Shown: piece by piece, positions 37,854 to 62,262 of the stretch | Layout of the letters: the number at the start of each line of letters is the position of its first letter | Position numbering within the stretch: position 1 is the stretch's first letter | NCBI GenBank assembly: GCA_964387145.1 | Contig: CAYLVM010000002.1 | Span: 31,763-95,762, forward strand | DNA length: 64,000 bases | Reading direction: 5' to 3' | From: an uncultured Acidimicrobiaceae bacterium | Lineage (GTDB): Bacteria > Actinomycetota > Acidimicrobiia > Spongiisociales > UBA5794 | Notes under the pieces: model-generated | Seen by the model: the letters and a program-made list of their open reading frames with translations, nothing else | Told to the model about the DNA's origin: nothing | Databases searched by the model: none | Program-made: the position numbers and the translations under genes

Positions 37854-38497
37854 TGCGGGTGTACCGATCCCCACTTCGCCTGTTCATGTTCGGTGTGCTC
37901 GGCCTGTTACTGATGATCGCCGCAGTCGACGTGATGTTCGCACACAGTGTTTCGACGGAGCCGGACAACAACGATGGCGTTCTCACGACGAGAGGCCAGG
38001 CGCAACAGCGTGGCGACTTCGTCTGGGGAGCGGCCATGATCGCGGCGGGGACACTGATGTTCGGCATCGGTGTCACCGAGTTGGTTCGGCGTACACCGCT
38101 CCTGGAAGTGGGTGAGGATGGCATCTCGGCAGCGATCGGCACCACGACACGCGACGTGATGATCCCATGGAGCCAGATCGAGTCCATTTCGAGCGCCGTA
38201 GTGAGGGACCCCTTCGACGGTGGTAGGAGGGAGCGGCTCTTCCTGGAGCTCAACGAACCGGGCGAAGTGCCAAGGGAAGTCGTTGGAGCGATCTGGGAGG
38301 GGAGGACGTTGAGCATCGATGCACACGACTGGACGAAGCCCGTGACCGAGGTGATGCTCGCATCTCAGGGTGCTCTCGACTACAACCGGCGCGTCGAGGC
38401 GATCAGCCAGATGGAGCCACCGTCGCTCACGTGGGAGGTCAAGGTCCCTCTTGGGGACGCAGGCCTGGAGTCGACGACCGAAGAGGAGCCGGAGTGA
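37853..38497 (+). CDS. Hypothetical membrane protein
   Basis: 214 aa; two N-terminal TM segments, acidic C-terminus. Confidence 0.4.
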   Translation: MRVYRSPLRLFMFGVLGLLLMIAAVDVMFAHSVSTEPDNNDGVLTTRGQAQQRGDFVWGAAMIAAGTLMFGIGVTELVRRTPLLEVGEDGISAAIGTTTRDVMIPWSQIESISSAVVRDPFDGGRRERLFLELNEPGEVPREVVGAIWEGRTLSIDAHDWTKPVTEVMLASQGALDYNRRVEAISQMEPPSLTWEVKVPLGDAGLESTTEEEPE

Positions 38498-39302: not shown

Positions 39303-39842
39303 CTAGTACCACCAGTTGTGGAAGGGGACGGGTGGGCCGACGGGGGTCGCCCGCGACGATGGGCGTGCGGGGAACCATGCGAGTTCGCGTCCCGTGCCGT
39401 CCGCCGTTGCCGCCGACAGGGCATGAACGCCTCGCAGACCGAGGCCGTGCACGAAGGCACCGATGGGCTGGCAGGTCTCATGGGGGACACGATCGCCTGC
39501 ATCGTCGAGCGGGTAGGACACGGGTAGGCCGAGCGCTTCGAGTCCATCCCCCGTCAACGCGTCGGCGACCCTCTGGCGCGACGGCAGTGTCACGGAGATC
39601 AACACGAGAGGTGCGTCGAGGTCTTCGGGGCGTACCGGCGAGCCCTCGAGCATGCGGTAGATCTGAGAACGGGCCGTGTCGAGATCCTCGTTGAGGTAGA
39701 GCGTGGGAAACGACGCCGGCGGGTTCCACCGCCCACCGTGGTGCTGGGCGTACGAGGGGTCGAGGGGATCGTCCCAGTTGGTGTCCGCGACACGAAGCCA
39801 TGTCTGGCCGTCACGGAGGCCTTCCGCTATCGGATCGATCAT
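39303..39842 (-). CDS. RES domain toxin (MbcT/Res-like NAD+-targeting toxin)
   Basis: 179 aa; RES-domain-like motifs GGRWNPPASFPTLYLNEDLDTA...E. Confidence 0.75.
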   Translation of the reverse strand: MIDPIAEGLRDGQTWLRVADTNWDDPLDPSYAQHHGGRWNPPASFPTLYLNEDLDTARSQIYRMLEGSPVRPEDLDAPLVLISVTLPSRQRVADALTGDGLEALGLPVSYPLDDAGDRVPHETCQPIGAFVHGLGLRGVHALSAATADGTGRELAWFPARPSSRATPVGPPVPFHNWWY

Positions 39843-40276
39843 GGCTGAATTCGGCGCAGATCGAACATCGAAGCTACGGCGTCTGCGACGGCCGCGGTGT
39901 TGCCTTGTGCCGCCACATCGAGGAGTGACCTATCCCCGAGCATCGGAGCATCCCTGCGGACGACGGCGGGGATACGGTCTCTCTTGACGTACCGATCGAG
40001 GAGGTCTGTCGCTGCGGAGAGGTCTGCGATCGCCGATGCCCGTGCCGAAGGCGGTCCCGACCGAAGCCACTTCGAGAACGCCTGGCGTGAAACTCCGAAG
40101 ATCTTGGCTGCGGCTGCGTTCGACAGACCCCACAGTTCAATGAACCGCTCGAGCGGATCGGTACGCACTGCCCGGTCGAGTTCGTCGACGAACCTGCGCG
40201 TCCACTCTGCATCGGCCCGGTCTGCCACGACGGCTGCTGCCGCCTCGGGTTCCATATCCATCCATACGAGTGCCAT
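39839..40276 (-). CDS. Xre/MbcA-like antitoxin (DUF2384) of the RES-Xre TA system
   Basis: 145 aa; 4-bp overlap with the downstream RES gene; HTH-like AAKIFGVSRQAFSKW. Confidence 0.7.
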   Translation of the reverse strand: MALVWMDMEPEAAAAVVADRADAEWTRRFVDELDRAVRTDPLERFIELWGLSNAAAAKIFGVSRQAFSKWLRSGPPSARASAIADLSAATDLLDRYVKRDRIPAVVRRDAPMLGDRSLLDVAAQGNTAAVADAVASMFDLRRIQP

Positions 40277-40330
40277 ACGTCAACCATATGACAACCGCAA
40301 CTATTCGTCAACCCTCAGCACCTCCGACGA

Positions 40331-41824
40331 TCATCTCGCTAGGCCCTCGCTGGTCACGTTCCAGGTGGTCGTGGTCGTCGCCGCGGCGAGCGCATCGTCG
40401 TGGGTGATGAGGAGGATCGCTCCTTCGAATGCGCTCAGCGCCGTCTCGAGGCGTTCGATCGACGGAAGGTCGAGATGGTTCGTTGGCTCGTCGAGGACCA
40501 GCAACCACTTGGGAGTCCCGAGGCCGAGTGCAAGGGCGATCTTGCGAGTCTCCCCGGGTGATGGCTGATCCGACGAAAGGAGAGCACCGGGGTCCGAACC
40601 GAGCGAGGCCACGATCGACATCATCCGTCCCCGATCCGCAGGCGGGAGTCCGGCAACCACCTTGAGCCAGACACGTCCTTGATCGGCAGTCGTTTCCTGC
40701 GGGAGGGAGAGGAGTCGATCGAAAGGTATAGCGGCAGCTGTGACCAGATGTTCGAGAAGCGTCGTCTTGCCGATTCCGTTCGGGCCGGCGATGCGGATTC
40801 GTTCGGACCTCCGGACGGCGACGTCGACATCGAACAGATGGCGGTCACCCGCATGGATCGGTCCCGAGCACCGGATGAGGAACTCCTTGTTCGCCCGAGC
40901 GAAGCCGAATCTGATGACTCCGCCAAGGTCCTTTTCGGCGCGAGCGGCGTCGATGACCGTTGCGAGCTTGCTCATCGAGTTCGAGATCGTCTCAACCGTC
41001 TGTGCCCCAGTCTTCTGACCCCGCTCGTGCTTGTAGGAGGCAGCGCTCCCTCTGGTGTCGAGATCGTGTTTACCTGCAGCTCGTCGCTCGCGGATGCGCT
41101 TGGCATCTTGCTGTTCACTCTTGCGGTGCTGCTCGTCGAGACGACGGGCGAGCTTCTTGCGCTCCGCCTTCGCCTTGTCGAGTCGCTCGGTCTCGAGCGC
41201 GGCCCTCGCCATCCACTCGCGGTGAGCCACGTCGTAGGACCCGTTCCACAACTCGATGAGGGAACCCGATATGCGCATCGTTCTCGATGTCAGACCGTTC
41301 AGTAGTGAGCGGTCGTGTGACACGACCACACCACAACCTCGGTAGGTGGTGAGCTCGGCGACAAGGAGATCCCGCGCTTGTGAGTCGAGGTGGTTGGTAG
41401 GTTCGTCCAGAAGGAGCACTTCTGGATCGCCAGCGAGGGATGCGCCGATCTGCCACCGTTTTCTCTCACCCGGAGACAGTGTCGTCCACCGTTCGAGATC
41501 GGCCGGCTCGAGGCGCAGGGAGGCTCTCAGGCGAACCGCGTCGCGGACCCACGCTGATGCGAATCGGGTGATCGCCTCGGTGAGGTCGTCGATACGCTGC
41601 GCACAGAGCACGGGGTCCAACCCCGAGGGCTCGATGGTCACCAACCCCGTATCGGGTGCGCGGACACGCGTGATGAGTGATAGGAGGGTGGACTTTCCTG
41701 CGCCGTTGGCGCCGACGAGTCCGGTCCAGCCGGGGCCGAGGTCGAAGGCCGCATCTTCGATGATCGGAACGGCGGATGAGTACGAGAAAGAAACGTGTGA
41801 GAAGTGAACGGCGGGCATGGGCAA
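40331..41824 (-). CDS. ABC-F family ATPase (tandem ABC domains, no TM)
   Basis: Two Walker A boxes (GANGAGKSTLL; GPNGIGKTTLL) and two signatures (LSPGERKRWQI; PSPGETRKIAL) with a charged linker. Confidence 0.8.
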   Translation of the reverse strand: MPMPAVHFSHVSFSYSSAVPIIEDAAFDLGPGWTGLVGANGAGKSTLLSLITRVRAPDTGLVTIEPSGLDPVLCAQRIDDLTEAITRFASAWVRDAVRLRASLRLEPADLERWTTLSPGERKRWQIGASLAGDPEVLLLDEPTNHLDSQARDLLVAELTTYRGCGVVVSHDRSLLNGLTSRTMRISGSLIELWNGSYDVAHREWMARAALETERLDKAKAERKKLARRLDEQHRKSEQQDAKRIRERRAAGKHDLDTRGSAASYKHERGQKTGAQTVETISNSMSKLATVIDAARAEKDLGGVIRFGFARANKEFLIRCSGPIHAGDRHLFDVDVAVRRSERIRIAGPNGIGKTTLLEHLVTAAAIPFDRLLSLPQETTADQGRVWLKVVAGLPPADRGRMMSIVASLGSDPGALLSSDQPSPGETRKIALALGLGTPKWLLVLDEPTNHLDLPSIERLETALSAFEGAILLITHDDALAAATTTTTWNVTSEGLAR

Positions 41825-41933
41825 CTCCCTGAGTAGGGCGGGCTCGGGGCCCGGAGGTGTTGGTTCCTCAGTTGATCCTTGTCATCACGTTCCGTTCGGC
41901 GATGTCCCAAGTGTACAACACGGTGTTGAGCGC

Positions 41934-41979
41934 GTCTGGCGCTGATACAACTCGTATACGAGCTGTATCAGCGCCAGAC
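41934..41979. repeat. REP-like palindromic element, copy 2 (perfect palindrome)
   Basis: GTCTGGCGCTGATACAACTCGTATACGAGCTGTATCAGCGCCAGAC. Confidence 0.85.
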
Positions 41980-41988
41980 ACCTGTAGA

Positions 41989-43071
41989 TCAGGTGGTGAG
42001 GTCTTCGCCGGCGATGAACGCCTCGACGTTGTCGTGGGCGACGCTGTCGTGGTACTGCACCGACGGGGACTTCATGAAGTACGACGACGGGGCGAGCAGC
42101 GGACCGGCCATGCCGCGGTCCAGTGCAAGCTTGGCGCAACGCACGGCATCGATGATGACACCTGCCGAGTTCGGTGAGTCCCAGACCTCGAGCTTCATCT
42201 CGACGTTGAGGGGAACATCACCGAACGACGTGCCCTCGAGGCGGATGTACGCCCACTTGCGGTCTGTGAGCCACGGAACGTGATCCGACGGGCCGATGTG
42301 GACGTTCTCCGAGTTGATCTTGTCCTCGATCTGGCTGGTAACCGACTGGGTCTTGGAGATCTTCTTGGATATGAGACGCTCACGCTCGAGCATGTTCATG
42401 AAATCCATGTTCCCACCGAAGTTCAGCTGGTAGGTGTTGTCGATATGGACACCGCGGTCCTCGAAGAGGCGAGCGAGTTGACGGTGGACGATCGTTGCGC
42501 CGACCTGGGACTTGATGTCGTCACCGATGATCGGTAGCCCGGCATCGACGAACTTCTGCGCCCACTCGGGGTCAGAAGCGATAAAGACGGGGATGGCGTT
42601 GACGAACGCGACCCCGGCGTCGAGTGCTGCCTGCGCGTAGAACTTCGTCGCTTGTTCGGATCCCACGGGGAGGTAGGAGACGAGGACGTCGGTCTCTGCA
42701 TCCTTGAGAACCTGAACGACGTCGACCGGCTCGGCCGGTGACTCCTCGACCTGGTCGACGTAGTACTTGCCGAGACCGTCGAGCGTTGGACCGCGGAGTA
42801 CCTCGACGCCGAGATCAGAGACCTCTGCAAACTGGATGGTGTTGTTCTGGCCACCCCACATCCCCTTTGCGATGTCCTGGCCGACCTTCGTTGCATCGAC
42901 GTCGAACGCCGCGACGAACTCGATGTCCCCGATGTGATATCCACCGAGGTCGACGTGCATCAGGCCTGGGATGTTGAGATCCTTGTCGGCGTCCTTGTAG
43001 TACTCGACTCCTTGGATGAGTGAGTTGGCGCAGTTACCGAGTCCTGCGATGGCGAGACGTACCTTGGACAT
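41989..43071 (-). CDS. ino1: Inositol-3-phosphate synthase
   Basis: 360 aa; actinobacterial Ino1-like sequence (Rossmann GLGNCANSL); adjacent PadR as in the mycobacterial Rv0046c/Rv0047c pair. Confidence 0.9.
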
Positions 43072-43088
43072 ATGTCCTCCTGTGGTTC

Positions 43089-43607
43089 CTAGTTCTGTGA
43101 GGCAACGCCACGTTCGGCTGCGACGAGACCGTCGAGCCAGGCGATGTCCGATTCTGCGGTCGCCATGGCGTGCTCCATCAGCGCGAGCCGGTAGCGGTCC
43201 TGGTTCTCTGTGTTCGAGCGGGCGTCGATGAGGATCTCGCGGGACGCCTTGAGATGGTGTGAGAGTGTTGCCCTGCGGTTCTCGAGGACCTGCACTCGCC
43301 GGTTCGTGGGAAGGTGGCCGAGGAAGGCGAGCCGGATCTGGAACGCCCGGTCGGTCTCGCTTGCGTCGGGATCGGCTTTGAGGAGCGTGTCGAATATCTC
43401 GCGGCCTTCATCGGTGACCTGGTACGCCTTGCGACGGCCGGTACCGCTCACAGCAGAGATCGCCCCGCGCTTTTCGAGGCGGCGCAACGCCGGGTACAGC
43501 GACCCGAACGACACCTTCCAGAACCCGAGTTCACCCAGGGCGCGCTTGAGCTCGTACCCGTGGCGGGCACGCTCCATCAAGAGACCGAGAACGGCGAAGT
43601 CCAACAT
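43089..43607 (-). CDS. PadR family transcriptional regulator
   Basis: 172 aa; winged HTH ([33 protein letters not shown]). Confidence 0.8.
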
Positions 43608-43617
43608 CGTGGAGCCA

Positions 43618-43658
43618 GTCTATATCGATTCGATACATACGTCTATATCGAACCGATA
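43618..43658. promoter_or_regulatory. Candidate PadR operator: two 18-bp direct repeats, each an internal palindrome
   Basis: GTCTATATCGATTCGATA cataC GTCTATATCGAACCGATA, AT-rich, immediately upstream of the padR start. Confidence 0.45.
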
Positions 43659-43806
43659 TACGACTTTCGCGTTCTCGTCGAGTCTTGCCGAGCGTCATCG
43701 AGGGTCCAGTCGGTCCACCGAGGCCATGAGTAGCGCACAGACCTGGCGTGATGACGCACAGAAGAGGTGAAGTGACATGCTGTGTTCGAGCAGGACGTAC
43801 CTGCTG

Positions 43807-43837
43807 CCAAGTACCAGGTACCGAGTACCAGGTACCG
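43807..43837. repeat. CCRRGTA heptamer array (copy C)
   Basis: CCAAGTACCAGGTACCGAGTACCAGGTACCG. Confidence 0.5.
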
Positions 43838-43859
43838 CTCAGCCCCCAGGGCGGAGCGG

Positions 43860-45548
43860 CTAACTCAGCCCAACAACGTTGCCATCTGCGTCGATGTCGA
43901 TCGAGTGGGCTGCAGGATGGAGGCCGAGCCCGGGCATGCGGTTGATCGAGCCCGTCAACGGAAGGACGAACCCGGCGCCGGCAACGAGCTGCACCTCACG
44001 CACCGGAAGCGTCCACCCCGTCGGGGCACCGAGCAACGCAGGGTTGTGACTGAAGGAGTACTGCGTCTTGGCCATACAGATCGGGAGATTGCCGTATCCG
44101 TGCGCCTCGTAGTCGGCGAGCTGACGTTTCGCCTTGATGTCGTACTCGACGCCATCTGCACCGTAGACCTTCGTGGCGATCGTCTCGATCTTTTCGGTGA
44201 GCGTCATGTCGGGCGTATAGAGGGGCGCAAAGTTCGATCCGTGCTCGGCAGCCTCTCGTACGGCCTCTGCAAGGGCAACCATGCCCTCTGCACCCCTGCT
44301 GAAGGGCTCGGCGATAGCCCACGCAGCGCCCTCCTCCTCGGCGATGGCACCGATCGCTGCATGCTCGGATGCGTGATCGGTCGGGAAGCTGTTGACGGCG
44401 ATGACCGGGATCACCCCGTGCTGGCGAATGTTGGCGATGTGCCTTCGCAGGTTCGCTGCTCCCGCCATGACGTCTTCGGGACTTTCGGCGACCATCTCTT
44501 CGGGAAGCGGCTTGCCTGCTTTGACCTGGAACTTCCCCGAGTTCAGCTTCAATGCGCGAACGGTTGCAACGATGACCGCGACATCGGGTGACATGCCCGA
44601 CGCTGCACACTTGAGATTGAAGAACTTCTCAGCACCGACATCGGACCCGAAGCCGGCCTCGGTGATGAGGTAGCTGCCGCTGCGGATTCCGACCTGGTCC
44701 GCAACGATGGACGAGTTTCCGTGCGCGATGTTGGCGAACGGTCCGGTGTGGACGAGCGCTGGTGTTCCCTCGAGGGTCTGCATGAGGTTCGGGTTGAGCG
44801 CATCCTTGAGAAGCACCGTCATCGCCCCTGCGCCCTTGATCTGCTCAGCGGTGACCGGGTTCTTGTGCCGGTCGTAGCCGATGACGATCCGACCCAGACG
44901 CTCGCGGAGATCCTGCAGGCTCGTTGCGAGACCGAGGACGGCCATCAGCTCAGAAGCTGCCGTGATATCGAAACCGCCCTCACGGGGGATGCCGTCGAGT
45001 GTCGTTCCGAGGCCGACCACGATGTTGCGCAGTGCCCGGTCGTTGACATCCATGACACGACGCCACGAAACGCGCTTGATGTTGATCGACAGCTGGTTGC
45101 CCTGGTAGATGTGGTTGTCGATCAGAGCGGCGAGGAGGTTGTTGGCTGCAGTCACAGCGTGGAAGTCACCGGTGAGGTGGAGGTTGAGTTCCTCCATCGG
45201 GACGAGCTGGGAGTATCCGCCGCCGGCGGCGCCACCCTTGATCCCGAACGTCGGGCCGAGGGAAGGCTGACGCAAGGTCAGGATCGCCTGCTCGTCGAGC
45301 AGCTTGAAGCCCTGGGCGAGGCCGACCGACACCGTGGTCTTACCTTCACCGAACGGCGTTGGATTCACCGCGGTCACCAGCACGTACTTGGCGCGAGGCT
45401 CCCCCATGTGCTCAAGAGCTTCGAGCTTGATCTTCGCGAGTCCGTGGCCACGTTGTTCGACGAACTCATCCGGAATGCCCATGTCCTCGGCAATGTCATG
45501 GATCGGGCGAAGTTCTACTGATCTGGCGATTTCTAGGTCGGTACGCAT
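43860..45548 (-). CDS. fhs: Formate--tetrahydrofolate ligase
   Basis: 562 aa; FTHFS family sequence (TPFGEGKTT). Confidence 0.95.
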   Translation of the reverse strand: MRTDLEIARSVELRPIHDIAEDMGIPDEFVEQRGHGLAKIKLEALEHMGEPRAKYVLVTAVNPTPFGEGKTTVSVGLAQGFKLLDEQAILTLRQPSLGPTFGIKGGAAGGGYSQLVPMEELNLHLTGDFHAVTAANNLLAALIDNHIYQGNQLSINIKRVSWRRVMDVNDRALRNIVVGLGTTLDGIPREGGFDITAASELMAVLGLATSLQDLRERLGRIVIGYDRHKNPVTAEQIKGAGAMTVLLKDALNPNLMQTLEGTPALVHTGPFANIAHGNSSIVADQVGIRSGSYLITEAGFGSDVGAEKFFNLKCAASGMSPDVAVIVATVRALKLNSGKFQVKAGKPLPEEMVAESPEDVMAGAANLRRHIANIRQHGVIPVIAVNSFPTDHASEHAAIGAIAEEEGAAWAIAEPFSRGAEGMVALAEAVREAAEHGSNFAPLYTPDMTLTEKIETIATKVYGADGVEYDIKAKRQLADYEAHGYGNLPICMAKTQYSFSHNPALLGAPTGWTLPVREVQLVAGAGFVLPLTGSINRMPGLGLHPAAHSIDIDADGNVVGLS

Positions 45549-45631: not shown

Positions 45632-46213
45632 ATGATCTCTCACACACTCGGTGTCGTACTAGCCGGTGGCAAGAGCCGTCGCATGGGAATCGACAAGGCT
45701 TCGATCGAGGTAGGTGGAACGTCGATGCTCGCGCTGGCCGTTGCAACCCTGTCGGGCCTGTTCGACGATGTCGTCGTCGCCGGGGGATCGGAGACTCCCC
45801 CGGGTTGTGTGCTGTTGGCCGACACACTCCCTGGAGCCGGTCCTCTTGCGGGCCTCGACGCTGCGTACGGCATTGCCCGAGACAGGGCCGTGTTCCTCAT
45901 GGCCCTCGACATGCCGTTCGTCGACGATGCGACCGTGCGCTCCATCGTCGAACCCACCGTTGATGCAATGGCCGCAAGAGTGCCTATCAGCGGGAACCGG
46001 CGCCATCCGCTGTGTGCCGTCTACGGAGCGAATCTCGGCCCACTCGTGACCGAGCGCCTTGTGAGGGAGGACCGCTCGATGGCGGCATTCATCGCCGGTA
46101 TCGACGGGGTCGAGTACATCAGGGTCGAGGAGCGACCCATGGTGAACGTGAACACCATCGAGGATCTCGAGGTAGCGCTCAGAGAATCCGGTCCGCCCCG
46201 CAGTACACGTTGA
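45632..46213 (+). CDS. mobA: Molybdenum cofactor guanylyltransferase
   Basis: 193 aa; GVVLAGGKSRRMG motif. Confidence 0.8.
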   Translation: MISHTLGVVLAGGKSRRMGIDKASIEVGGTSMLALAVATLSGLFDDVVVAGGSETPPGCVLLADTLPGAGPLAGLDAAYGIARDRAVFLMALDMPFVDDATVRSIVEPTVDAMAARVPISGNRRHPLCAVYGANLGPLVTERLVREDRSMAAFIAGIDGVEYIRVEERPMVNVNTIEDLEVALRESGPPRSTR

Positions 46214-47000
46214 AGCCACCATCGCGAACGAAACCGAGGACCGTCATGTTCAGTTCCTCGCCGAGGTCGACTGCCAGGTCGGATGCTCCCGACACCCCGC
46301 CGATCACCGGGATCCCTGCAACCGCTGCCTTCTGAACGATCTCGAAGCTGATCCGTCCCGACACGAAGAGGATGACGTGGTTGAGTGGCCACCGTGTCGT
46401 TGCCAGATGGCCGATGAGTTTGTCGACGGCGTTGTGTCTCCCGATGTCCTCGAATACGGCGATGAGCTCACCCGATGGTGAGAAAGCGGCGGCGGCGTGG
46501 ATGCTCCCCGTCGTATCGAAGGTCCGTTGCCGTTCTCGCATGGCACCGGACAGCGTCGAGATGGTCCCTGCGGGGATCATGGGCCCCGGTGCCATCGAAC
46601 GCGCCGCTACCCGCACTGCATCGATCGATGCCTTGCCACACACGCCGCACGACGACGACGTGAAGAAGTTCCTCCGGAACTGCTCGGGGTCGACCGTAAC
46701 TCCCTCGGCGAGCACCATGCGGTAGCGATCACCCTCAGCGGTTCCCTCGACTCGCTTGATCGAATCGACTTCGTGTGGGCCGAGAACGATCCCCTCGGTC
46801 AATGCGAATCCGAGACCGAGAACCTCGTCGTCACCCGGGGTGCGCATCAGCACTGCGATCGGGACGTCATGCAAACGGAACTCGACAGGCGATTCAGAGA
46901 CGAGGTGGTCCGCGGCACTTGTCGCTACACCATCGTGGTATCGAACGATCGGTCTACTCATGGGGTGATGTTCCGCTTGCTGCGACGCGGGAGCACGCAC
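46179..47000 (-). CDS. fdhD: Formate dehydrogenase accessory sulfurtransferase FdhD
   Basis: 273 aa; FdhD family sequence with the conserved SSCGVCG motif. Confidence 0.85.
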   Translation of the reverse strand: MRAPASQQAEHHPMSRPIVRYHDGVATSAADHLVSESPVEFRLHDVPIAVLMRTPGDDEVLGLGFALTEGIVLGPHEVDSIKRVEGTAEGDRYRMVLAEGVTVDPEQFRRNFFTSSSCGVCGKASIDAVRVAARSMAPGPMIPAGTISTLSGAMRERQRTFDTTGSIHAAAAFSPSGELIAVFEDIGRHNAVDKLIGHLATTRWPLNHVILFVSGRISFEIVQKAAVAGIPVIGGVSGASDLAVDLGEELNMTVLGFVRDGGFNVYCGADRIL

Positions 47001-47020: not shown

Positions 47021-47884
47021 CTACGCATCTTCACTCTGGACATAGGCGTAGCCGAAGCGGCCTTTGATGCAGAGGTGGCCACTGGTGACGTCGTGGTCGA
47101 GTGGCGACGTGACCTTGACGATGCGGTTGTCCTGGACATGCAGGTCGAGGTTGCAGCCGACACCGCAGTAGCTACACACCGTCCTTGCGACGTGTTGTGC
47201 AGACTCATCCCACGTCCCTGCCTCGCGCATGCGGTACTCGGAGGTGAACATGAGCGCACCCGTGGGACAGACGCCGACGCAGTTTCCGCAGTACACGCAC
47301 GCCGATTCGGGCAGCGTGATGTCGAACTCGGTGGTGATGGTCGCAGCGAGTCCTCGGCCCCCAACATCGATGGCGAAGGTGTTCTGTGCATCGGGACCAC
47401 ACGCCGCGACGCAGCGGAAGCACATGATGCACTTGTCGTAGTCCCGTATGTAGAGGTCGTCCTCGATCTTGACCTCGCGTCTCGGGCGGGCCCACGAACC
47501 CCACCGATCGGGGTCGACGCCATACCGTTCCATGAACCCTTTCGTCGTGTCCTCGACGAGGGACATGTCGACGGTCGATGCGAGCAGTTCGTAGACCGTC
47601 TTGCGGACGGCCTTCACTCTCGAGGATTCGGTCACAACTGCCATGCCGGGGGTGATCTCCCGGGAGCACGCAGGCACGAGGTTGCGCGAGCCTTCGACCT
47701 CAACGACACAGACACGGCACGAGTTGAACGGTGCAAGTGTCTCGATATAGCACAGGGTCGGCACGGTGACATCGATCGAAGCGCACGCCTCGAGGATCGT
47801 CGTCCCGGTAGATGCCGTGATCTGGCGACCGTCGATCGTGATCTCGATGAGCGATTCGGTGGCCTGGGTGGTCACGACGACCCC
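47021..47884 (-). CDS. Formate dehydrogenase Fe-S subunit: 2Fe-2S ferredoxin plus 2x[4Fe-4S] plus Mo-domain 4Fe-4S motif (NuoG N-terminal-like), without a molybdopterin domain
   Basis: C-terminus ends in CSYCGVGCNLDLHV...GHLCIKGRFGYAY, the N-terminal cluster motif of molybdopterin oxidoreductases; start placed at the VVVTTQATESLIEITIDGRQI GTG overlapping the upstream gene. Confidence 0.7.
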   Translation of the reverse strand, partial: GVVVTTQATESLIEITIDGRQITASTGTTILEACASIDVTVPTLCYIETLAPFNSCRVCVVEVEGSRNLVPACSREITPGMAVVTESSRVKAVRKTVYELLASTVDMSLVEDTTKGFMERYGVDPDRWGSWARPRREVKIEDDLYIRDYDKCIMCFRCVAACGPDAQNTFAIDVGGRGLAATITTEFDITLPESACVYCGNCVGVCPTGALMFTSEYRMREAGTWDESAQHVARTVCSYCGVGCNLDLHVQDNRIVKVTSPLDHDVTSGHLCIKGRFGYAYVQSEDA

Positions 47885-49680
47885 CCGATGATGCCGATCG
47901 CAAGCGCAGACTGCACAGCGGCGGACGCTGCCTGTCCGAGGCCACAGATCGAAGCGTCCCGCAGGACATGGTCGAGATCGCTGAGCAGTGTCAGCTCCGT
48001 ATCTACGTCCGTCGATCCCGTCCTGATCCGCAGAAGCGTCTCTTCCTGGCGGACCGTCCCTGCTCGGCACGGCACACAGACGCCACAGGACTCCTCGGCG
48101 AAGAAATGGGCGATCCGCGACACGATGTCGGGAAGGTCGGTATCGGTGTTGAAGACCAGTACGACACCCGAGCCGAGTCCGATGCCGTGTTCCCGGGTGT
48201 CCTCGAACGTCAGTGGCAGATCGAAGTCGGCCTCGGTGATGAACGCACCGGCTGCGCCCCCGATGAGGACGGCAGCCACCTCCCCGTCGACTCCCCCTGC
48301 GAGTTCGATCAACTCACCGGTGGTCGCCCCGAACGGCACCTCGTAGACCCCGGGGTCCTTGACGTTGCCTGATACACAGAACAGCTTTGGACCCTTGGAG
48401 TCCTCGGTTCCGATGGCGGAGAACGCTTCGCCACCGTCGAGAACGATGGTGGGGACGTTCATGAGCGACTCGACGTTGTTGACGAGTGTCGGGCACCCGA
48501 AGACACCTGCCTGGGTGGGGAAGGGTGGCTTCTGGCGTGGCTCGCCTCTGAAGCCTTCGATCGAGTTGAACAGGGCGGTCTCCTCGCCACAGATGTAGGC
48601 ACCCGCTCCCTTGCGGAGTTCGATGTCGAACGTGAACCCGCTTCCGGCGACGTCCTCGCCGAGGTACCCGGCTGCGCGAGCCTCATCGATCGCCTCGGCC
48701 AGGCGCGCATGTGCGATCGGATACTCGCCGCGGATGTAGATGTAGCCGCGACGTGCGCCGACGGCATACCCGGCGATCGTCAACGCCTCGATGAGACCGA
48801 ACGGATCCGTCTCCATCAGGACCCGGTCCTTGAAGGTGCCTGGCTCGCTCTCGTCGGCGTTGCAGATGACGAACTTGTCGCCTTCCTCTCCTGCGACCGC
48901 ATTCCACTTGATTCCTGCGGGGAACGCTGCACCGCCACGTCCGCGCAGACCACTCGTGGTGATCTCAGAGAGGATCTGCTCGGGGCCGATGGCGATCGAA
49001 TGAGAAAGGGCCGCGTATCCACCGTTCTTCTCGAAGGCTTCGAGAGACGTGGCCTGTCGGGACAGGAGTGTGGTGCCGGGGGTCGGGTCCGTCGGCTCAA
49101 CTATGGATGTGGGCTCGTCGATGGAGAGGATCTCGATGACCTGATCCACCGTGACGGGTGCGATGACGACATCGTCGCCGCCGGCAACCTGAACGAACGC
49201 TGCCGAGCCCTTCTCGCACTGCCCGAGACACGGTGAGTGTCTCCACATGCCTTCGTCGATCGTCTGTCCCGCGTCGCCGAAGCGTTGGGTGAGGTCAGCG
49301 AGGAGACCGTCGACACCTGTTGCCTTGCATGCAATGTCGTCGCACAGGTGGGCGACCCGCCTGGGTCGTTCATCGGTCGCGATGAGGTCGTAGAACGTCG
49401 CAACGCCGTACGCCTCTGCCGGGGATACGGGGATACGCTCGGAGATGTAGTTGAGGGCGCCGTGGCTGACCCACCCGACGTCACCCTGAACACCGTGGAG
49501 AGCAGGCAGGAGGAGGTGCCGGCGATCCTGGGATGCGCGGAACCCGCCATAGGCGACGTGATCGTCGACAGCGGATCGTTCCTCGGCTCCAGCCCACACC
49601 GAGTCTGGCTCACCGAGTACACGATCGACTGCCGCTCGTTCTTCGGCGGTTGGTGCATCGGGGGTGGTTCTGTAGTCCAT
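47872..49680 (-). CDS. NAD-dependent formate dehydrogenase diaphorase subunit, fused NuoE-like (2Fe-2S) plus NuoF-like (FMN/NADH/4Fe-4S)
   Basis: 602 aa; NuoE thioredoxin-like Cys pattern, then NuoF motifs (GRGGAAFPAG, ESCGVCVPCR). Confidence 0.85.
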   Translation of the reverse strand: MDYRTTPDAPTAEERAAVDRVLGEPDSVWAGAEERSAVDDHVAYGGFRASQDRRHLLLPALHGVQGDVGWVSHGALNYISERIPVSPAEAYGVATFYDLIATDERPRRVAHLCDDIACKATGVDGLLADLTQRFGDAGQTIDEGMWRHSPCLGQCEKGSAAFVQVAGGDDVVIAPVTVDQVIEILSIDEPTSIVEPTDPTPGTTLLSRQATSLEAFEKNGGYAALSHSIAIGPEQILSEITTSGLRGRGGAAFPAGIKWNAVAGEEGDKFVICNADESEPGTFKDRVLMETDPFGLIEALTIAGYAVGARRGYIYIRGEYPIAHARLAEAIDEARAAGYLGEDVAGSGFTFDIELRKGAGAYICGEETALFNSIEGFRGEPRQKPPFPTQAGVFGCPTLVNNVESLMNVPTIVLDGGEAFSAIGTEDSKGPKLFCVSGNVKDPGVYEVPFGATTGELIELAGGVDGEVAAVLIGGAAGAFITEADFDLPLTFEDTREHGIGLGSGVVLVFNTDTDLPDIVSRIAHFFAEESCGVCVPCRAGTVRQEETLLRIRTGSTDVDTELTLLSDLDHVLRDASICGLGQAASAAVQSALAIGIIGGSS

Positions 49681-49687
49681 GGTCGCC

Positions 49688-51574
49688 TCAGTTTGCCGTG
49701 AGCGGTTCGATCCGCACTGCGGTCGCCTTGAACTCTGCGGTCCCGGATTTGGGATCCCACGCGTCGAGCGTGAGGATGTTGACGTCTACGTCGTCGGGCG
49801 AGTGGATCGCCATGAAGACGAGGCCCTTGCGTAGTCCCGAACTGATCCGTACCGGGACGTCGATCGATCCCCGACGTGACGTGACCCTGACGACCTCACC
49901 TTCCTCGACTCGAAGCGCGGTTGCTTCTTGCGGTGATACGTCGATGACGGCACCGTGGCGGATCGGTGATCGGAAGCCGCCAGACTGGACGCCGGTGTTG
50001 TAGCCGTCGAGCCGCCTGCCCGTCGTGAGGCGGATCGGGAAGTCGTCATCGAGGGGATCGACGGGGGGTACCCAGTCGACCTTCGAGAACGCTGCAGGCT
50101 CGCGTGGCATGGGGTCTTCCCACAGCCAGGCGTGGAGGAACAGCGTCCCTGGATGGTCCTCGGATGGGCATGGCCATTGGAGGCCACCGAGGGTTTCGAG
50201 CCGCTCATACGTCATGCCGGTGTGCATCGGGCTCAGAGCCCGTAGCTCGTCCCAGATCTCTTCGGCGGAGCGATGTGGCCAGTCGTTGCCCAACTGTCGT
50301 GCCAACAGCGTGAGGATCTCGATGTCGTCCTTGGCGTCGGCCGGCGGTTCGAGTGCTTTGTGTACGCGCTGCACGCGCCGTTCGCTCGAGGTCACGGTTC
50401 CGTCGGTTTCTGCCCATCCGACCGCGGCCGGGAGCACGACGTCGGCCATCTCCGCTGTTTTCGTGAGGAAGATGTCCTGGACGACGAGATGGTCGAGTCC
50501 GGCGAGAAGGTCGATGGTGCGACCCGTATCGGCCTCAGATTGTGCCGGATTCTCTCCGAGGATGTACATGGCGGTGAGATCGCCGCTCTCCATGGCATCG
50601 AACATCTGGGTGACGTGCCAGCCGTTCTCTGACGGGATCGAAGTGCCCCACATCGACTCGAACTTCGAGCGGAGTTCGGGGTCGGTCACGTTCTGGAACC
50701 CGGGGAGCTTGTTGGGGAGGGCTCCCATGTCGCCACCGCCCTGGACGTTGTTCTGCCCGCGGATCGGCACGAGCCCCGAGCCGTAACGGCCGAGATGTCC
50801 GGTGAGAAGTGACAGGTTGATGAGGGCGAGCACGTTGTCGGTCGCGTTGTGATGCTCGGTGATACCCAGTGTCCAGCACAGTTGTGCAGTGCGTGCCTTT
50901 GCGTAGTCGTGGGCAAGGGAGCGGATCGCATCGGCGGGCACACCGGTGGTCGCCTCTGCATACTCGAGGGTGTAGGGCTCGACGTGGTCGGTGAACTCTT
51001 CGAAGCCGGAGGTGGAGTGCGCGACGAACTCGGTGTTGACGAGGCCTGCATGGATGATCTCACGTGCAACGGCGTTGGCGAGGGCGATGTCGGAGCCGGT
51101 GTCGATCCCGAGCCAGATATCTGCCCACTCTGCGGACTCTGAGCGACGTGGATCAACGGCGTACATCTTGGCTCCGTTGCGCATACCTTTGGCGAGATGG
51201 TGGAAGAAGATAGGGTGGGCATTACGCGCGTTGGACCCCCACAGGATGATGAGGTCCGTGGTCTCGATCTCTTCATAGGACGACGTTCCGCCGCCTGCTC
51301 CCAGGACTGCCGCCAGACCGGCGACGCTAGGAGCGTGTCAAGTTCGGTTGCAGCTGTCGACGTTGTTCGTGTGAAGCACCGTGCGTGCGAACTTCTGTGC
51401 CACGAAGTTCATCTCGTTCGTCGCCTTCGAACACGAGAACATGCCCGTAGCGTCGGGAGTGTTGCGTTGGAACCCGGCCGCTGCCCTCTCGAGGGCGACA
51501 TCCCAGCTTGCCTCGGTGAGCCGTCCGTCCTCGCGGACCATCGGCGTCGTCAGGCGTTCGTATCGTTTACCCAT
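49688..51574 (-). CDS. fdhA: Formate dehydrogenase molybdopterin catalytic subunit, predicted selenoprotein with in-frame UGA at 51338-51340 (complement)
   Basis: Continuous frame ...VDSCNRT-UGA-HAPSVAGLAAVLGAGG...; Sec aligns with the conserved Sec/Cys of formate dehydrogenases (E. coli FdhF ...RV-U-HGPSVAGL); RBS GGGAGGTG before ATG 51574. Confidence 0.7.
51311..51323 (-). promoter_or_regulatory. Candidate SECIS apical hairpin CGCC-GGUCU-GGCG, 18 nt 3' of the fdhA UGA
   Basis: Same loop (GGUCU, the Gly-Leu codons) and same UGA-to-loop distance as the E. coli fdhF SECIS. Confidence 0.5.
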
Positions 51575-51667
51575 CTCACCTCCCTTCACAGGACGCCAGC
51601 GTAACAAAGCGGCACCGTCGAGAAATCGGGACACAGCGTCCGATGCCGGCGAGTCGCCAGATGGTGC

Positions 51668-52472: not shown

Positions 52473-53291
52473 CTAGAAGAAGAGCCTTTTGGCAGCGTCG
52501 GTGAAGATGGCGAGGACGAGGAACCAGGCTCCGACGAGGATCAGGATGCGGCCACCCCACCTTTTCACCGCCGGACCGGCCGTCTTGAACCGGCTGAGGG
52601 TCGATGCCTGTGCAAATGTGGCACCGAGAGCGGCCAGGAACATCAGGATCACGATCATCGCGGCAGCGACCGTGAACGTGAACACCGACGTCGCGACGCT
52701 TCCGGCGATGAGGGACTGTGCGGCCAGACCGGCCAGCAGCGGTCCCGTTCAGGAGAACCCCGCCGCCAGGTAGCCGAAACCGTACAGGACGTGGCTCGAG
52801 AAGCGGGTCTCGTCGCCGATCGCTGCGCGTCTGCGGTCGATGGGCTCGGCGATTCTCGTCATGGCCGAGAAGTGCAGATCGACGACGCGTAGCTGAACAA
52901 GACCCATGACGATCAGAACGATGCCGACCACGACTCGCAGGATCCTTCCCTGGGCCGAGTCGAAGGAGAACAGGCGGGCGATGGCACCACCACCGAGGGA
53001 GAGCAGGAGACCGAAACCCACGATGAAGGCAACGGCCCCGACAGATGCTCCGGTCGCGAATCGAAGGGTATCGCGCGCCCGATGCTCCGGCGATGTCGTT
53101 GCCCGGCGGGCGAGTGTGGTCAGGAGGAGAGGGAACGAACAGGGCGAGAAGAACGCGGCGATACCGACCGTCGCGGCGACCACAACGAGTCCAACGCCGG
53201 TCGCTCCGCCGACGTCGAAGGAGCGGAACAGCCGGAACCCGACGTAGCCGGCGAAGCCGACGACGAGCGTGATGATGACGAGGAGCGCCAT
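52473..53291 (-). CDS. CcdA/DsbD-family thiol-disulfide transporter homolog with in-frame UGA (complement 52749-52751) replacing the second conserved Cys; predicted selenoprotein
   Basis: Reads MALLVII...AAFFSPCSFPLL...YGFGYLAAGFS-UGA-TGPLLAGLAAQSLIAG...RWGGRILILVGAWFLVLA; both segments are in one frame; the UGA aligns with Cys of the CcdA TM4 motif (AAGWTPCIGPILG); GGCC-GGUCU-GGCC hairpin 18 nt downstream. Confidence 0.6.
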
Positions 53292-53372
53292 ACGCGTCCG
53301 CAGCCTGGACTGCTTCAACTCGTCTCTGTCGGTCGTCACGGTTCTCCTGTGGTGTGGTGTGACTACCCTAAA

Positions 53373-53392
53373 CCTTGAAGTCGACTTCAAGG
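53373..53392. promoter_or_regulatory. Perfect 20-bp palindrome CCTTGAAGTCGACTTCAAGG between divergent merR and ccdA-like genes (MerR-type operator candidate)
   Basis: Seen in sequence; resembles the SoxR box (CCTCAAGTTAACTTGAGG) in architecture. Confidence 0.5.
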
Positions 53393-53404
53393 TCAAGAGG
53401 GATC

Positions 53405-53800
53405 GTGCAGATAGGAGAACTCGCCGGGGCGAACACCGTATCGACCGCAACGGTGCGGTATTACGAGCAGATCGGGCTTCTCGATCCCCCGAAGCGGACG
53501 GCGTCGGGGTACCGGGACTACGACCAAGATGCTTCAGCGAGACTCGGCTTCATTCGGGCTGCCCAGGGAGCAGGCCTCAGCCTGGAGGAGATCCGCACGA
53601 TCCTCGAGATATCGAACGCCGGAGATGCCCCGTGCGGTCACGTTGCAGGGTTGATAGATGAAAAGGTGAAGACGATCGCTACGAAGATCGCAGCACTTCA
53701 GGTGGCGAAGGCCGATCTCGAGGCGCTCTCCGCTCGAGCCCGAACCCTCACCGGAACCCCCTGCCCCGAAGGCTCCATCTGCCACATCCTCGCCCCATAG
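53405..53800 (+). CDS. MerR family transcriptional regulator with C-terminal Cys/His cluster (metal-responsive type)
   Basis: MerR HTH (IGELAGANTVSTATVRYYEQIGLL), coiled-coil linker, C-terminal PCGH...PCPEGSICH. Confidence 0.8.
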   Translation: MQIGELAGANTVSTATVRYYEQIGLLDPPKRTASGYRDYDQDASARLGFIRAAQGAGLSLEEIRTILEISNAGDAPCGHVAGLIDEKVKTIATKIAALQVAKADLEALSARARTLTGTPCPEGSICHILAP

Positions 53801-57090: not shown

Positions 57091-57813
57091 ATGCGTTGGG
57101 CCGGGTTCGTGATAGCGATCGTCGTCGGGGGTTTGGTTTCCCTGTGGGCTGTGCGTGACCATCTGAACTCTGGATCCATTGTTTTACTCGTTTCTGTTAT
57201 TGCGCTCGGTCTGGCATGGCTCGCGTGGGTGACGGTGTCGGACACTCTGTCCTCGCGATGGTTTGCATGGCATCGGGAGTGGGCAGTGGTGGCCTCCCAT
57301 CCTGTCGCCGTGTCGTTCGCATTGTTCTCCATCGGTATCACCGGATGGATGGCGAGCGGGATGGTCCCATCGTTTCCGATTGGCGCCGCTGTGGTCCTTG
57401 TCGGTTCGCTCGGGTTCCTCGCGTCGCTGGTGGATCATCGACTCCCTGCGCTCCTCGTAGCGACCGTCGCTTTGTTCGGCGTTGCAAGCGTCGCGGGTGT
57501 CGGTCTCTCGGCGCATGAGTCTGTGTCGGTCGAAACGGCGATCGTCGTGGGTGTCGTCCTCTTCACGACCGCCGTCGTTGCCCTCCTGATCTCAGGGTCG
57601 GTCTTTCGATGGTTCATGGTTGCGGTGGGGAGCCTCGCTGCCGGTTACGTTTGGAGCGGGATCGCCGTGCTGCAGTTCGTTCCCCTGTCGGTGCCGTTCA
57701 AGAGAGTCGCCATTGCTGGGGTTCTCGGTGCATCGATCGTCGCGCTCATCCTGTCCCTGGTTGCCCATCGGCTGGATCGCGGCACTCGCGAGGTATCCAG
57801 AATCGGGGGGTAG
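57091..57813 (+). CDS. Hypothetical polytopic membrane protein
   Basis: 240 aa, ~7 hydrophobic segments. Confidence 0.4.
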   Translation: MRWAGFVIAIVVGGLVSLWAVRDHLNSGSIVLLVSVIALGLAWLAWVTVSDTLSSRWFAWHREWAVVASHPVAVSFALFSIGITGWMASGMVPSFPIGAAVVLVGSLGFLASLVDHRLPALLVATVALFGVASVAGVGLSAHESVSVETAIVVGVVLFTTAVVALLISGSVFRWFMVAVGSLAAGYVWSGIAVLQFVPLSVPFKRVAIAGVLGASIVALILSLVAHRLDRGTREVSRIGG

Positions 57814-58394: not shown

Positions 58395-58425
58395 GTGAGT
58401 GCAGACGGCTGGTACCTTCCTCGCC

Positions 58426-58974
58426 ATGACGCAGATCTACTTCACCGAAGCGACCGACGCCAACACCCTGCTCGCAGAGAACCACTTCGCGCTCCTCGTA
58501 GGGATGACGCTCTACCAGCAGATCCCCGTCGAGAAGGCTTTCGCCGGACCGTACGAGCTCGAGCAGCGTCTCGGTAAGCCGATCGATGCGCAGCTGATCG
58601 CATCGATGGATCCCGATGAGCTCGAGGTCGTTTTCCGTGAAAAGCCCGCTCTCCACCGGTTCCCGGCCAACATGGCGAAACGGACCCAGGCTGTGGCGAA
58701 CTTCATCGTCGATGAGTACGGCGGTGATCCAACCGGGTTGTGGGAGGGTGTCGAGACCCATGCCGAGCTGATCAAGCGGATCAAGGCGATGCCCGGCTTC
58801 GGCGACTACAAGGCCAGGGTCTACTCGGCGGTCCTCGCCAGACAGTTCGACGTCAAGCCTGCGGGGTGGGATGCAAAGCTCCCCGAGTGGCCCAACATCT
58901 CTGAGGTCGACTCTGCCGAGGGCCGCACCGAGATGAAGGCCCGCAAGAAAGCCTGGAAAGCCGCCCAGTCCTAG
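58426..58974 (+). CDS. HhH-GPD-type base-excision repair family protein (putative)
   Basis: 182 aa; resembles the small actinobacterial HhH-GPD family; uncertain. Confidence 0.45.
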   Translation: MTQIYFTEATDANTLLAENHFALLVGMTLYQQIPVEKAFAGPYELEQRLGKPIDAQLIASMDPDELEVVFREKPALHRFPANMAKRTQAVANFIVDEYGGDPTGLWEGVETHAELIKRIKAMPGFGDYKARVYSAVLARQFDVKPAGWDAKLPEWPNISEVDSAEGRTEMKARKKAWKAAQS

Positions 58975-62095: not shown

Positions 62096-62140
62096 ATCCA
62101 ACCCCTCTCGACCGTACCCCACAGGCTAGATGCAATAGGT

Positions 62141-62186
62141 GTCTGGCGCTGAATCAACTCGTATTCGAGCTGTATCGGCGCCAGAC
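62141..62186. repeat. REP-like palindromic element, copy 9
   Basis: GTCTGGCGCTGAATCAACTCGTATTCGAGCTGTATCGGCGCCAGAC. Confidence 0.8.
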
Positions 62187-62262
62187 ACCTGGGCACCGCG
62201 ACAGACCTCTTCCATTCACCGGCTCGGCGTGGCACGGTGGCGGTGTGGAGGATCGTGAACGC

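Follow-up and report, generated by a model that had tools for sequence, protein, structure and literature searches.

A probable NAD-linked selenocysteine formate dehydrogenase with its alpha subunit divided between two reordered genes at the FS0 boundary

Molybdenum- or tungsten-dependent enzymes that carry a bis-pyranopterin guanine dinucleotide (bis-PGD) cofactor and the [4Fe-4S] cluster FS0 normally hold both this cluster and the pterin-facing lysine in the catalytic chain. The literature on formate dehydrogenases (FDHs) that we consulted, including a 2026 review and the ForCE paper, yielded no description of an FDH that obtains FS0 from a separate subunit. For Sulfobacillus, selenocysteine (Sec)-containing FDH catalytic subunits have been reported to be syntenic with NuoEFG-like genes (Justice et al. 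2014; PMC4378227), and the supplementary table of that paper lists, as consecutive genes of cultured aerobes, Sulac_0971 ('NAD-dependent FDH iron-sulfur protein'), Sulac_0972/0973 (NuoF / 51 kDa) and Sulac_0974 ('catalytic subunit', given in two pieces because of the Sec); the position at which the alpha subunit is cut, the provision of FS0 in trans and the reordering of the genes are not discussed there. Here we analyse a 64,000-nucleotide stretch (hereafter the window) from an uncultured Acidimicrobiaceae bacterium (GenBank assembly GCA_964387145.1, contig CAYLVM010000002.1), in which four minus-strand genes very probably specify one cytoplasmic, Sec-dependent Mo-/W-bis-PGD FDH linked to nicotinamide adenine dinucleotide (NAD(H)), with its alpha subunit made as two polypeptides, an iron-sulfur part (FeS-half) and a molybdopterin part (Mo-half). 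Such a functional split of an FdsA/FdhA-type alpha subunit around a fused NuoE-NuoF diaphorase (NuoEF) had been proposed in an earlier note made from the sequence alone, and this core reading is supported by the domains, the conservation of ligands and motifs, the tiling of the halves on unsplit enzymes, gene order with translational coupling and the Sec decoding signal, the function itself being predicted from sequence.

To locate the split, we aligned both halves with unsplit enzymes. On the NCBIfam profile TIGR01591 (Fdh-alpha), positions 1-52 correspond to FeS-half 232-283 and positions 51-672 to Mo-half 5-622. Unsplit metagenomic relatives of ~900 aa align colinearly with both halves, which meet at one residue with an overlap of at most 2 residues; on P0233, for example, FeS-half 5-283 covers residues 2-280 and Mo-half 6-623 covers residues 280-900. 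Among solved structures, the FeS-half aligns with residues 24-307 of Rhodobacter capsulatus FdsA, and the Mo-half with FdsA from residue 307, with Escherichia coli FdhH from residue 61 and with T. kivui FdhF from residue 62. Since the halves tile the profile, the unsplit relatives and the structures alike, the alpha subunit is cut exactly between the FS0 segment and the molybdopterin domain, and Pfam places the end of the Fe-S half at the same boundary, as the earlier note had it. Unlike in Fdh-alpha catalytic subunits, FS0 and the Mo domain do not share a polypeptide, nor is the NuoG-like Fe-S region contiguous with the Mo domain as it is in FdsABG and in FDH1 of Methylorubrum extorquens (FoDH1): the two lie on separate genes with nuoEF between them. 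A further claim, that both halves retain a copy of the junction sequence K-G-x-x-G-x-Y, did not hold, as the halves overlap by at most 2 profile columns and relatives do not conserve the MGKRY with which the Mo-half begins; judging from the alignments, the match in the Mo-half is a chance resemblance. Homologues of the Mo-half begin at the same position as that of the window, with N-termini that vary (MGKRY, MKKDY, MSKPY, PISSK...) and keep only RLTxP(L/M)(V/I)R. A split intein or another form of protein splicing was considered and rejected, there being no intein-sized insert and no nucleophile where the FeS-half ends (...VQSEDA) and the Mo-half starts (MGKRY).

Pfam assigns Fer2_4 (E 1.2e-20), ferredoxin-type Fer4 domains and Molybdop_Fe4S4 (residues 228-280, E 5.5e-20) to the FeS-half, which ends four residues past this last, FS0-binding domain, and Molybdopterin (PF00384, E 1.9e-63) with Molydop_binding (PF01568, E 3.8e-23) to the Mo-half, in which it finds no Molybdop_Fe4S4; this is the division of domains that the earlier note had anticipated. 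The E-values of these matches, taken with conservation in more than 80 genomes, put them well outside chance. Nor does an FS0 motif occur in or upstream of any Mo-half among the related genome loci, so that the possibility of Mo-halves normally having an FS0 of their own, by which that note could have fallen, is not borne out. The FeS-half provides ligands for one [2Fe-2S] cluster (C42, C53, C56, C70), two ferredoxin-type [4Fe-4S] clusters (C149/152/155/159 and C193/196/199/203) and FS0 (C234, C237, C241, C269), the spacing of the last set (+3, +4, +28) being that of FdhH (C8/11/15/42). All 16 cysteines and K271 of the C-I-K-G motif are invariant in an alignment of 57 FeS-halves. This CxKG lysine is the equivalent of Lys44 (K44) of E. 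coli FdhH, without which that enzyme neither retains FS0 nor is active (PMC12176258). With FS0 and Lys271 on the FeS-half and Sec79, His80 and Arg272 on the Mo-half, the surroundings of the active site would be built from two polypeptides. An AlphaFold2 (AF2) model of the FeS-half, used for fold-level confirmation only, superposes on the N-terminal third of FdsA, the FoDH1 alpha subunit, NuoG-type subunits and a HydA with TM-scores, normalised by query length (TMq), of 0.6-0.66.

The FeS-half differs from FdsA and NuoG in the region of the His-ligated [4Fe-4S] cluster. The domain for this cluster, PF10588 (NADH-G_4Fe-4S_3), has no Pfam match in the FeS-half of the window, the motif H-x3-C-x2-C-x4-6-C is missing in 84/84 FeS-halves, and a Cys-free linker of ~60 residues (FeS-half 85-148) stands where FdsA and NuoG carry the His-Cys3 domain. 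PF10588 is also missing from some unsplit relatives (P0223). As the path from flavin mononucleotide (FMN) through N3 and [2Fe-2S] to [4Fe-4S] in the structures of complex I and FdsA can dispense with the His-ligated cluster, the electron chain would, by analogy, stay complete without it. The partner subunit NuoEF combines 2Fe-2S_thioredx, Complex1_51K (FMN/NADH), SLBB and NADH_4Fe-4S domains in one chain, so that both the NuoF-like FMN/NADH subunit with its [4Fe-4S] cluster and the NuoE-like [2Fe-2S] module of FdsABG and FoDH1 are present; as Pfam finds no extra ferredoxin domains in it, an electron-bifurcating HydB-type flavoprotein is unlikely. Seven FeS-halves of Acidimicrobiia type (L009, L010, L019, L036, L046, L052, L072) carry after FS0 a conserved tail of ~20 aa, xLGDLAxTPIDxVLRRAR, which is absent from the FeS-half of the window and could be a docking peptide.

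The catalytic residues of the Mo-half are Sec79, His80 and Arg272 (in PIRGQNNVQG), and all 58 Mo-halves compared share the motifs CNRT-U-HAPS and P(L/I)RGQNNVQG. A divergent operon with the gene order of the window (L004:1614-5820, GCA_037931745.1) encodes a Mo-half of 518 aa without Molydop_binding, in which VDCGAGPGHSPGV replaces SCNRT-U-HAPSV and QRRNNAQG replaces RGQNNVQG; to judge from its sequence, this protein has probably decayed or acquired a new role.

The Sec codon of the Mo-half, described as intact in the earlier note, is an in-frame TGA at codon 79 (51340-51338) in the context NNVDSCNRT-TGA-HAPSVAGL, and DSCNRT-TGA-HAPS is found in 60/60 scorable related loci. In E. coli fdhF, the selenocysteine insertion sequence (SECIS) is a hairpin that begins 12 nt after the UGA and has a GGUCU-type apical loop. 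A hairpin likewise begins 12 nt past the UGA of the window, with a 6-bp stem GUCGCC/GGCGGC (51325-51320 with 51314-51309) and an apical loop GGUCU (51319-51315). Across 59 distinct sequences the loop is invariant and the stem (consensus GUCGYC/GRCGRC) is paired in 98.9% of cells, whereas weak pairing (78.8%) in a proposed lower stem led us to set that stem aside. Two pairs show compensatory changes. In three sequences (L064, L069, L078) a pair of synonymous substitutions turns C-G into G-C; in seven sequences C-G passes over U-G to U-A, accompanied by Ala/Val and Ala/Thr replacements, and none of the 59 sequences has the Ala...Thr combination that would set C opposite A. Fixed spacing 3' of the UGA, a conserved loop and covariation, the hallmarks of fdhF-type SECIS elements, are all present, and the claim of an intact Sec codon is upheld. 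At another locus (L077:3174-3273), roughly 1 kb ahead of the FDH operon, ARAGORN predicts a 100-nt 'tRNA-Pro (tgg)' with its anticodon at position 39, a length that is unusual for a bacterial tRNA.

To survey the arrangement in other genomes, we used FeS-halves of Acidimicrobiia (that of the window), Bryobacterales and Bacillota as queries in three homologue searches, with matches coming from NCBI, JGI, ENA and Logan sources. At least 120 matches were listed per seed, 120/120 of each listing end in Molybdop_Fe4S4, and nearly all of the more than 360 FeS-halves listed are 274-344 aa long; two, of 392 aa and of 301-310 aa, are extended at the N-terminus. A scan of one genome per GTDB species gave 80 loci of 55-73% identity, whose neighbours were mapped by tblastn, and 67 of these were informative, the other 13 lying on contigs too short to tell. 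Mo-half, NuoEF and FeS-half are contiguous in that order at 62/67 informative loci, which bears out across genomes the order seen in the window, and both halves co-occur at 64/67; L001-L004 have this order as well. The carriers belong to more than ten phyla, among them Actinomycetota (Acidimicrobiia and others), Acidobacteriota (Terriglobia, Bryobacterales), Chloroflexota, Eremiobacterota, Dormibacterota, Gemmatimonadota, Verrucomicrobiota, Bacillota and Binatota; a few unexpected labels, for instance Micrarchaeaceae and Saccharimonadales, probably reflect wrong binning. The neighbourhoods of the FeS-halves P0057, P0083 and P0122, the last 52% identical, read Mo-half, NuoEF, FeS-half and then FdhD, with an overlap of 1-8 nt between the NuoEF and FeS genes, and in every related locus the FeS open reading frame (ORF) stops 0-74 residues past KGRFG. 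The overlapping start/stop couplings and the lack of frameshifts that the earlier note had remarked on are seen in the window, and the coupling is conserved in relatives. A search of a representative library was dominated by fragmentary metagenome proteins, and its matches of ~350-460 aa are unsplit Sec-FdhA proteins truncated at the UGA (P0155 ends in DNCSRA); tblastn against 72,556 plasmids found no split member and matched only unsplit FdsA-type sequences at ~35% identity. As far as sequence comparison can tell, the split arrangement is not unique to the genome of the window and forms a large conserved family.

Neighbour-joining trees with midpoint rooting group the split sequences into a single clade, for the Mo-halves as for the FeS-halves, with within-clade identities of at least 61% (Mo) and at least 48% (FeS) and identities of at most 49.5% and 41%, respectively, to ten unsplit proteins, which include T. 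kivui FdhF. A single ancient event would be the simplest reading of this clade. The unsplit relative P0223 sits in a canonical operon of the order NuoE, NuoF, FdhA (locus L086), and the Mo-EF-FeS layout would most simply derive from such an operon. One possible route is that EF-[FeS·Mo] was duplicated in tandem and then shed its outer parts, EF-FeS on one side and Mo on the other, in effect a circular permutation at the operon level; the other is fission of the alpha gene with translocation of the Mo part upstream. The relatives examined include no intermediates between the unsplit and split layouts.

We propose that the Mo-half binds the pterin cofactor and brings Sec79, His80 and Arg272, and that the FeS-half would supply in trans FS0 and the lysine that bridges FS0 and the pterin, along with the two ferredoxin-type [4Fe-4S] clusters and the [2Fe-2S] cluster, its N-terminal part docking on NuoEF. 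Electrons from formate would then pass from Mo/W through FS0, the two [4Fe-4S] clusters, the [2Fe-2S] cluster, the NuoF [4Fe-4S] cluster and FMN to NAD+, an order modelled on complex I, FdsA and FoDH1, while FdhD would sulfurate and insert the cofactor for which MobA makes the molybdopterin guanine dinucleotide (MGD). The physical complex, the specificity for NAD+, the metal, the direction of catalysis and the evolutionary route are what we infer from these likenesses.

Several observations weigh against this proposal. The complex of Mo-half, NuoEF and FeS-half is drawn by analogy, and because the His-ligated cluster of FdsA is missing, the electron path cannot be transferred one-to-one from that enzyme. 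Confidence in the AF2 model of the FeS-half is only middling (mean pLDDT 66), with cluster-binding loops below 50. The Mo-half scores 657.4 bits against the TIGR01591 cut-off of 666.25, falling just short because the first ~50 profile positions sit on the FeS-half, where they score 55.3 bits. An Rfam scan of the whole window at gathering thresholds gave no match at all, so that the hairpin fits no curated SECIS family, and the Sec machinery (selA/B/D, tRNA-Sec) was found neither in the window nor in the 60 loci scanned for it. The unsplit outgroups were picked by FeS similarity only and are few, which makes monophyly provisional. Finally, some loci depart from the common order: insertions separate Mo-half and NuoEF in L015 (a gap of ~1.1 kb) and in L044 (L044:1-8909; ~5 kb with an ABC ATPase, a histidine kinase and a response regulator), L025 and L084 are without a Mo-half upstream, and L079 (7971-8981) has a lone FeS-half between genes for a glycosyltransferase and a 3-keto-disaccharide hydrolase.

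The neighbouring gene fhs, for formate-tetrahydrofolate (THF) ligase, bears on the direction in which the enzyme works. Both in the window and in its closest relatives fhs is found immediately downstream, its product being 78-89% identical in L001-L006, and it also occurs nearby in other Acidimicrobiia, an association that suggests oxidation of formate released from formyl-THF; one-carbon (C1) oxidation is thus the likely role. The same proximity would suit an enzyme that reduces CO2 and passes the formate on to Fhs for the assimilation of C1 units, and metal-dependent FDHs are reversible (PMC13397495). NADH is, however, a weak reductant for CO2, the hosts come from lineages that, going by their taxonomic labels, are mostly aerobic heterotrophs, and other Wood-Ljungdahl or reductive-glycine genes were not seen in the scanned parts of the window, all of which makes the reductive direction unlikely.

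We consider it quite improbable that the operon encodes two enzymes, namely a HoxFU-like diaphorase or reductase made of NuoEF and the FeS-half, and an FS0-less molybdoenzyme that pairs the Mo-half with some other partner. Stand-alone proteins like the N-terminal part of NuoG do exist: HoxU of NAD-reducing [NiFe] hydrogenases (5XF9 chain B) and 9MQX_A are ~240-aa [2Fe-2S] and [4Fe-4S] partners of NuoE/F-type flavoproteins and align with FeS-half residues 12-212. The lone FeS-half of L079 would fit such a reading, as would an Acidimicrobiales metagenome-assembled genome (MAG; L084:3720-8888, CAXXMX010000010.1) in which a 796-aa molybdenum cofactor (MoCo) subunit of the xanthine oxidase family (Ald_Xan_dh_C, MoCoBD_1, MoCoBD_2) precedes NuoEF and the FeS-half in place of the bis-MGD Mo-half, with a Rieske oxygenase alpha subunit further upstream; this arrangement could, as read from gene content, be a swap of the catalytic module or mere adjacency. 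However, HoxU-type proteins end before FS0, and the HoxU model covers only residues 10-210 of the FeS-half (141 bits against a cut-off of 333), whereas the FeS-half has a complete Molybdop_Fe4S4 domain whose FS0 ligands and pterin-facing CxKG lysine are invariant, which makes sense only beside a bis-PGD domain. Moreover, the Mo-half begins exactly where FS0 ends in unsplit enzymes, and the co-occurrence of the halves counts against separate enzymes.

A still smaller probability attaches to the Mo-half being another bis-PGD enzyme, such as an assimilatory nitrate reductase of the NasC/NasA type served by NuoEF and the FeS-half as reductase. The Mo-half does match the NasC and NasA models, with 407 and 375 bits, but these scores are far under the respective cut-offs of 1100 and 1000, while the Fdh-alpha score is within 9 bits of its own. 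The Sec-His pair and the RGQ arginine fit the catalytic motif classes of FDHs (PMC8808070), fdhD adjoins the operon, and the solved chains nearest to the Mo-half are all FDHs. An assembly error, a local inversion or a decaying pseudogene of an ordinary FdsA-type gene, although a split with reordering in one contig is how a mis-join would look and gene callers do break the Mo-half at the TGA (78 + 538 aa in L002), is refuted by the conservation of the arrangement across genomes, with an identical split point and order in independent NCBI, JGI, ENA and Logan assemblies and in complete MAG chromosomes, the absence of frameshifts, invariant cofactor ligands, conserved start/stop coupling and a TGA kept along with its SECIS-like hairpin, and the preference of the earlier note for a natural split enzyme over a pseudogene or mis-assembly is thereby sustained.

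For the split NAD-linked FDH, we also asked what the cut might be good for. That it is adaptive and tied to Sec and modularity, through a UGA at codon 79 of the first cistron, a portable NuoEF/FeS module and an O2-compatible Sec-FDH, is a tentative idea that we regard as possible but doubtful. If true, failed Sec decoding would leave a harmless 78-aa peptide in the split enzyme, whereas in an unsplit enzyme it would leave an Fe-S protein of ~360 aa able to bind and poison the NuoEF diaphorase. Placing FS0 and the bridging lysine in trans would turn the NuoEF/FeS unit into a portable NAD-linked electron module for other catalytic partners, at which the xanthine-oxidase-family subunit in the place of the Mo-half in L084 hints. 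Sec in 60/60 members, from lineages that are mostly aerobes, would then mark a design of Sec-FDH compatible with O2.

The coordinates of the operon and its neighbours are collected in Table 1. The minus-strand ORF map agrees with the order Mo-half, diaphorase, FeS-half and fdhD given in the earlier note, and the strong ribosome-binding site reported ahead of the Mo-half was recovered. The start of the FeS gene had been set at 47884, where the codon is GGG, and needed correction to a GTG at 47875; the 99%-identical P0001 has the same length as the corrected product. A spacer of 7 nt separates the Mo-half stop from nuoEF, and the FeS-half GTG overlaps the nuoEF stop as GTGA. For fdhD, ATG 46961 is likely the true start rather than 47000, because the NF001943 alignment begins at residue 16. 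The mobA neighbour is kept in L001, L002, L005 and L006; among the 80 related genome loci, fhs is present at 11 and FdhD at 22. A scan for promoter and terminator consensus sequences between 45.4 and 52.5 kb gave none above shuffled expectation, and base composition around the operon is unremarkable (GC ~0.62-0.64).

Table 1. Features of the FDH operon and its neighbours (positions in the window)
Feature	Position	Strand	Remarks
Shine-Dalgarno-like GGGAGGTG	51577..51584	-	2 nt upstream of Mo-half ATG 51574; read from sequence
Mo-half (FdhA C-terminal part)	49688..51574	-	628 codons, ATG 51574 to TGA 49688; ORFs, translations, Pfam
UGA and SECIS-like element, inside Mo-half	51309..51340	-	12-nt spacer, 6-bp stem, GGUCU loop
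Fused NuoE-NuoF diaphorase subunit	47872..49680	-	602 aa; Pfam, NCBIfam
FeS-half (FdhA N-terminal part)	47021..47875	-	284 aa, GTG 47875 to TAG 47021
fdhD, sulfurtransferase/chaperone for FDH Mo cofactor	46179..47000	-	PF02634, E 2.1e-64
mobA-like NTP transferase (MGD synthesis)	45632..46213	+	Pfam; convergent with fdhD
fhs (formate-tetrahydrofolate ligase)	43860..45548	-	downstream, same strand as FDH genes

Downstream of the operon, fhs, PadR, myo-inositol-1-phosphate synthase and ABC ATPase genes (window 40334-45548) are syntenic with L002/L003 10682-16858 from aquatic metagenomes, a synteny that places the window with these loci in what appears to be one Acidimicrobiia lineage. Further along lie a RES-domain protein, the putative toxin of a RES-Xre pair (39306-39842, minus strand), and an ORF that adjoins it upstream (39874-40311, minus strand). 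Between 60000 and 64000 the GC content rises up to 0.66, and this part holds a 540-aa ORF without Pfam match (60503-62122, minus strand), an AbiEi_4 / REase_MTES_1575 protein (62011-63216, plus strand) and a DUF1501 protein (63219-63992, minus strand). Four ORFs (37853-38494, plus; 52752-53450, minus; 57091-57810, plus; 58399-58971, plus) have a gene-like GC content at third codon positions (GC3) and no Pfam match at E <= 1e-5; the product of that at 52752-53450 resembles a multi-pass membrane protein, and this ORF overlaps a MerR-like one (53375-53800, plus strand) at the latter's 5' end.

Split FDHs are thus a widespread, essentially uncharacterised variant of the NAD-linked metal-dependent FDHs, whose neighbours have already been listed in genome papers: the catalytic chain is cut exactly at the FS0 boundary, yet the arrangement is conserved over more than ten phyla. 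Databases label the FeS-half with names that are unspecific or incorrect ('2Fe-2S iron-sulfur cluster-binding protein', 'YjgC', 'NADP-reducing hydrogenase subunit HndD'). With the FeS-half misnamed, and the Mo-half broken at the UGA and below the Fdh-alpha cut-off, the capacity for formate oxidation and the use of selenium are likely undercounted or mislabelled in Actinomycetota, Acidobacteriota, Chloroflexota, Eremiobacterota and other bacteria of soil and sea. These proteins also offer a natural template for modular FDH engineering, in which the catalytic head could be separated and the electron module exchanged, be it for CO2 reduction or for NADH regeneration, and they would be a clean case of operon-level circular permutation in a multidomain redox enzyme.

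To relate the operon to described enzymes, we compared it with named systems. The tungsten enzyme FDH1 of M. extorquens (FoDH1/MeFDH1, Fdh1A-Fdh1B; PDB 7E5Z, 7VW6, 8J83) is likewise an NAD-linked Mo/W-bis-PGD FDH with a NuoE-NuoF fusion as beta subunit, and its beta chain (7e5z_B) is the only solved chain that aligned across both the NuoE and the NuoF part (query 53-592). The N-terminal Fe-S region of its alpha subunit aligns with FeS-half 9-280 without gaps, and its Mo part with the Mo-half at 399 bits; however, FoDH1 alpha is a single chain of ~990 aa with Cys at the metal, whereas the window has two genes in reversed order with beta between them, and Sec. The FdsGBA(C)D enzymes of R. capsulatus and Cupriavidus necator (PDB 6TG9/6TGA, 6VW7), whose FdsA is the best match of the FeS-half (149 bits), have in common with the window operon the cofactor logic of NuoE-like, NuoF-like and NuoG-like Fe-S regions, FS0 and bis-MGD, as well as a dedicated FdhD/FdsC sulfurtransferase gene in the cluster. 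The Fds genes differ from the window operon in keeping FdsA whole and in encoding FdsG and FdsB separately, in the order G-B-A, and Cys binds the metal in these enzymes; moreover, FdsA has the His-ligated [4Fe-4S] cluster that the window lacks (FdsA 119-174 lies opposite the FeS-half gap 104-141), and no FdsD homologue was seen for the window operon.

E. coli FdhH (fdhF; PDB 1AA6) aligns with the Mo-half from residue 61 to its end (466 bits), with the Sec-His pair and Arg conserved, but FS0 is part of its own chain (residues 1-60, with K44 among them), and it serves formate hydrogenlyase instead of pairing with NuoEF. Formylmethanofuran dehydrogenase FwdB/FwdD, a bis-PGD enzyme of the FDH lineage, has a catalytic unit that is naturally divided over two polypeptides; it is cut at the other end, Molydop_binding being the separate FwdD while FS0 stays on FwdB. 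Finally, the FDH clusters of Sulfobacillus (Sulac_0971-0974, Sulth_1880-1882) have, going by their listed annotations, the same neighbour order, FeS-EF-Mo, and may belong to the split clade; cultured carriers thus appear to exist, making the questions raised here directly testable.

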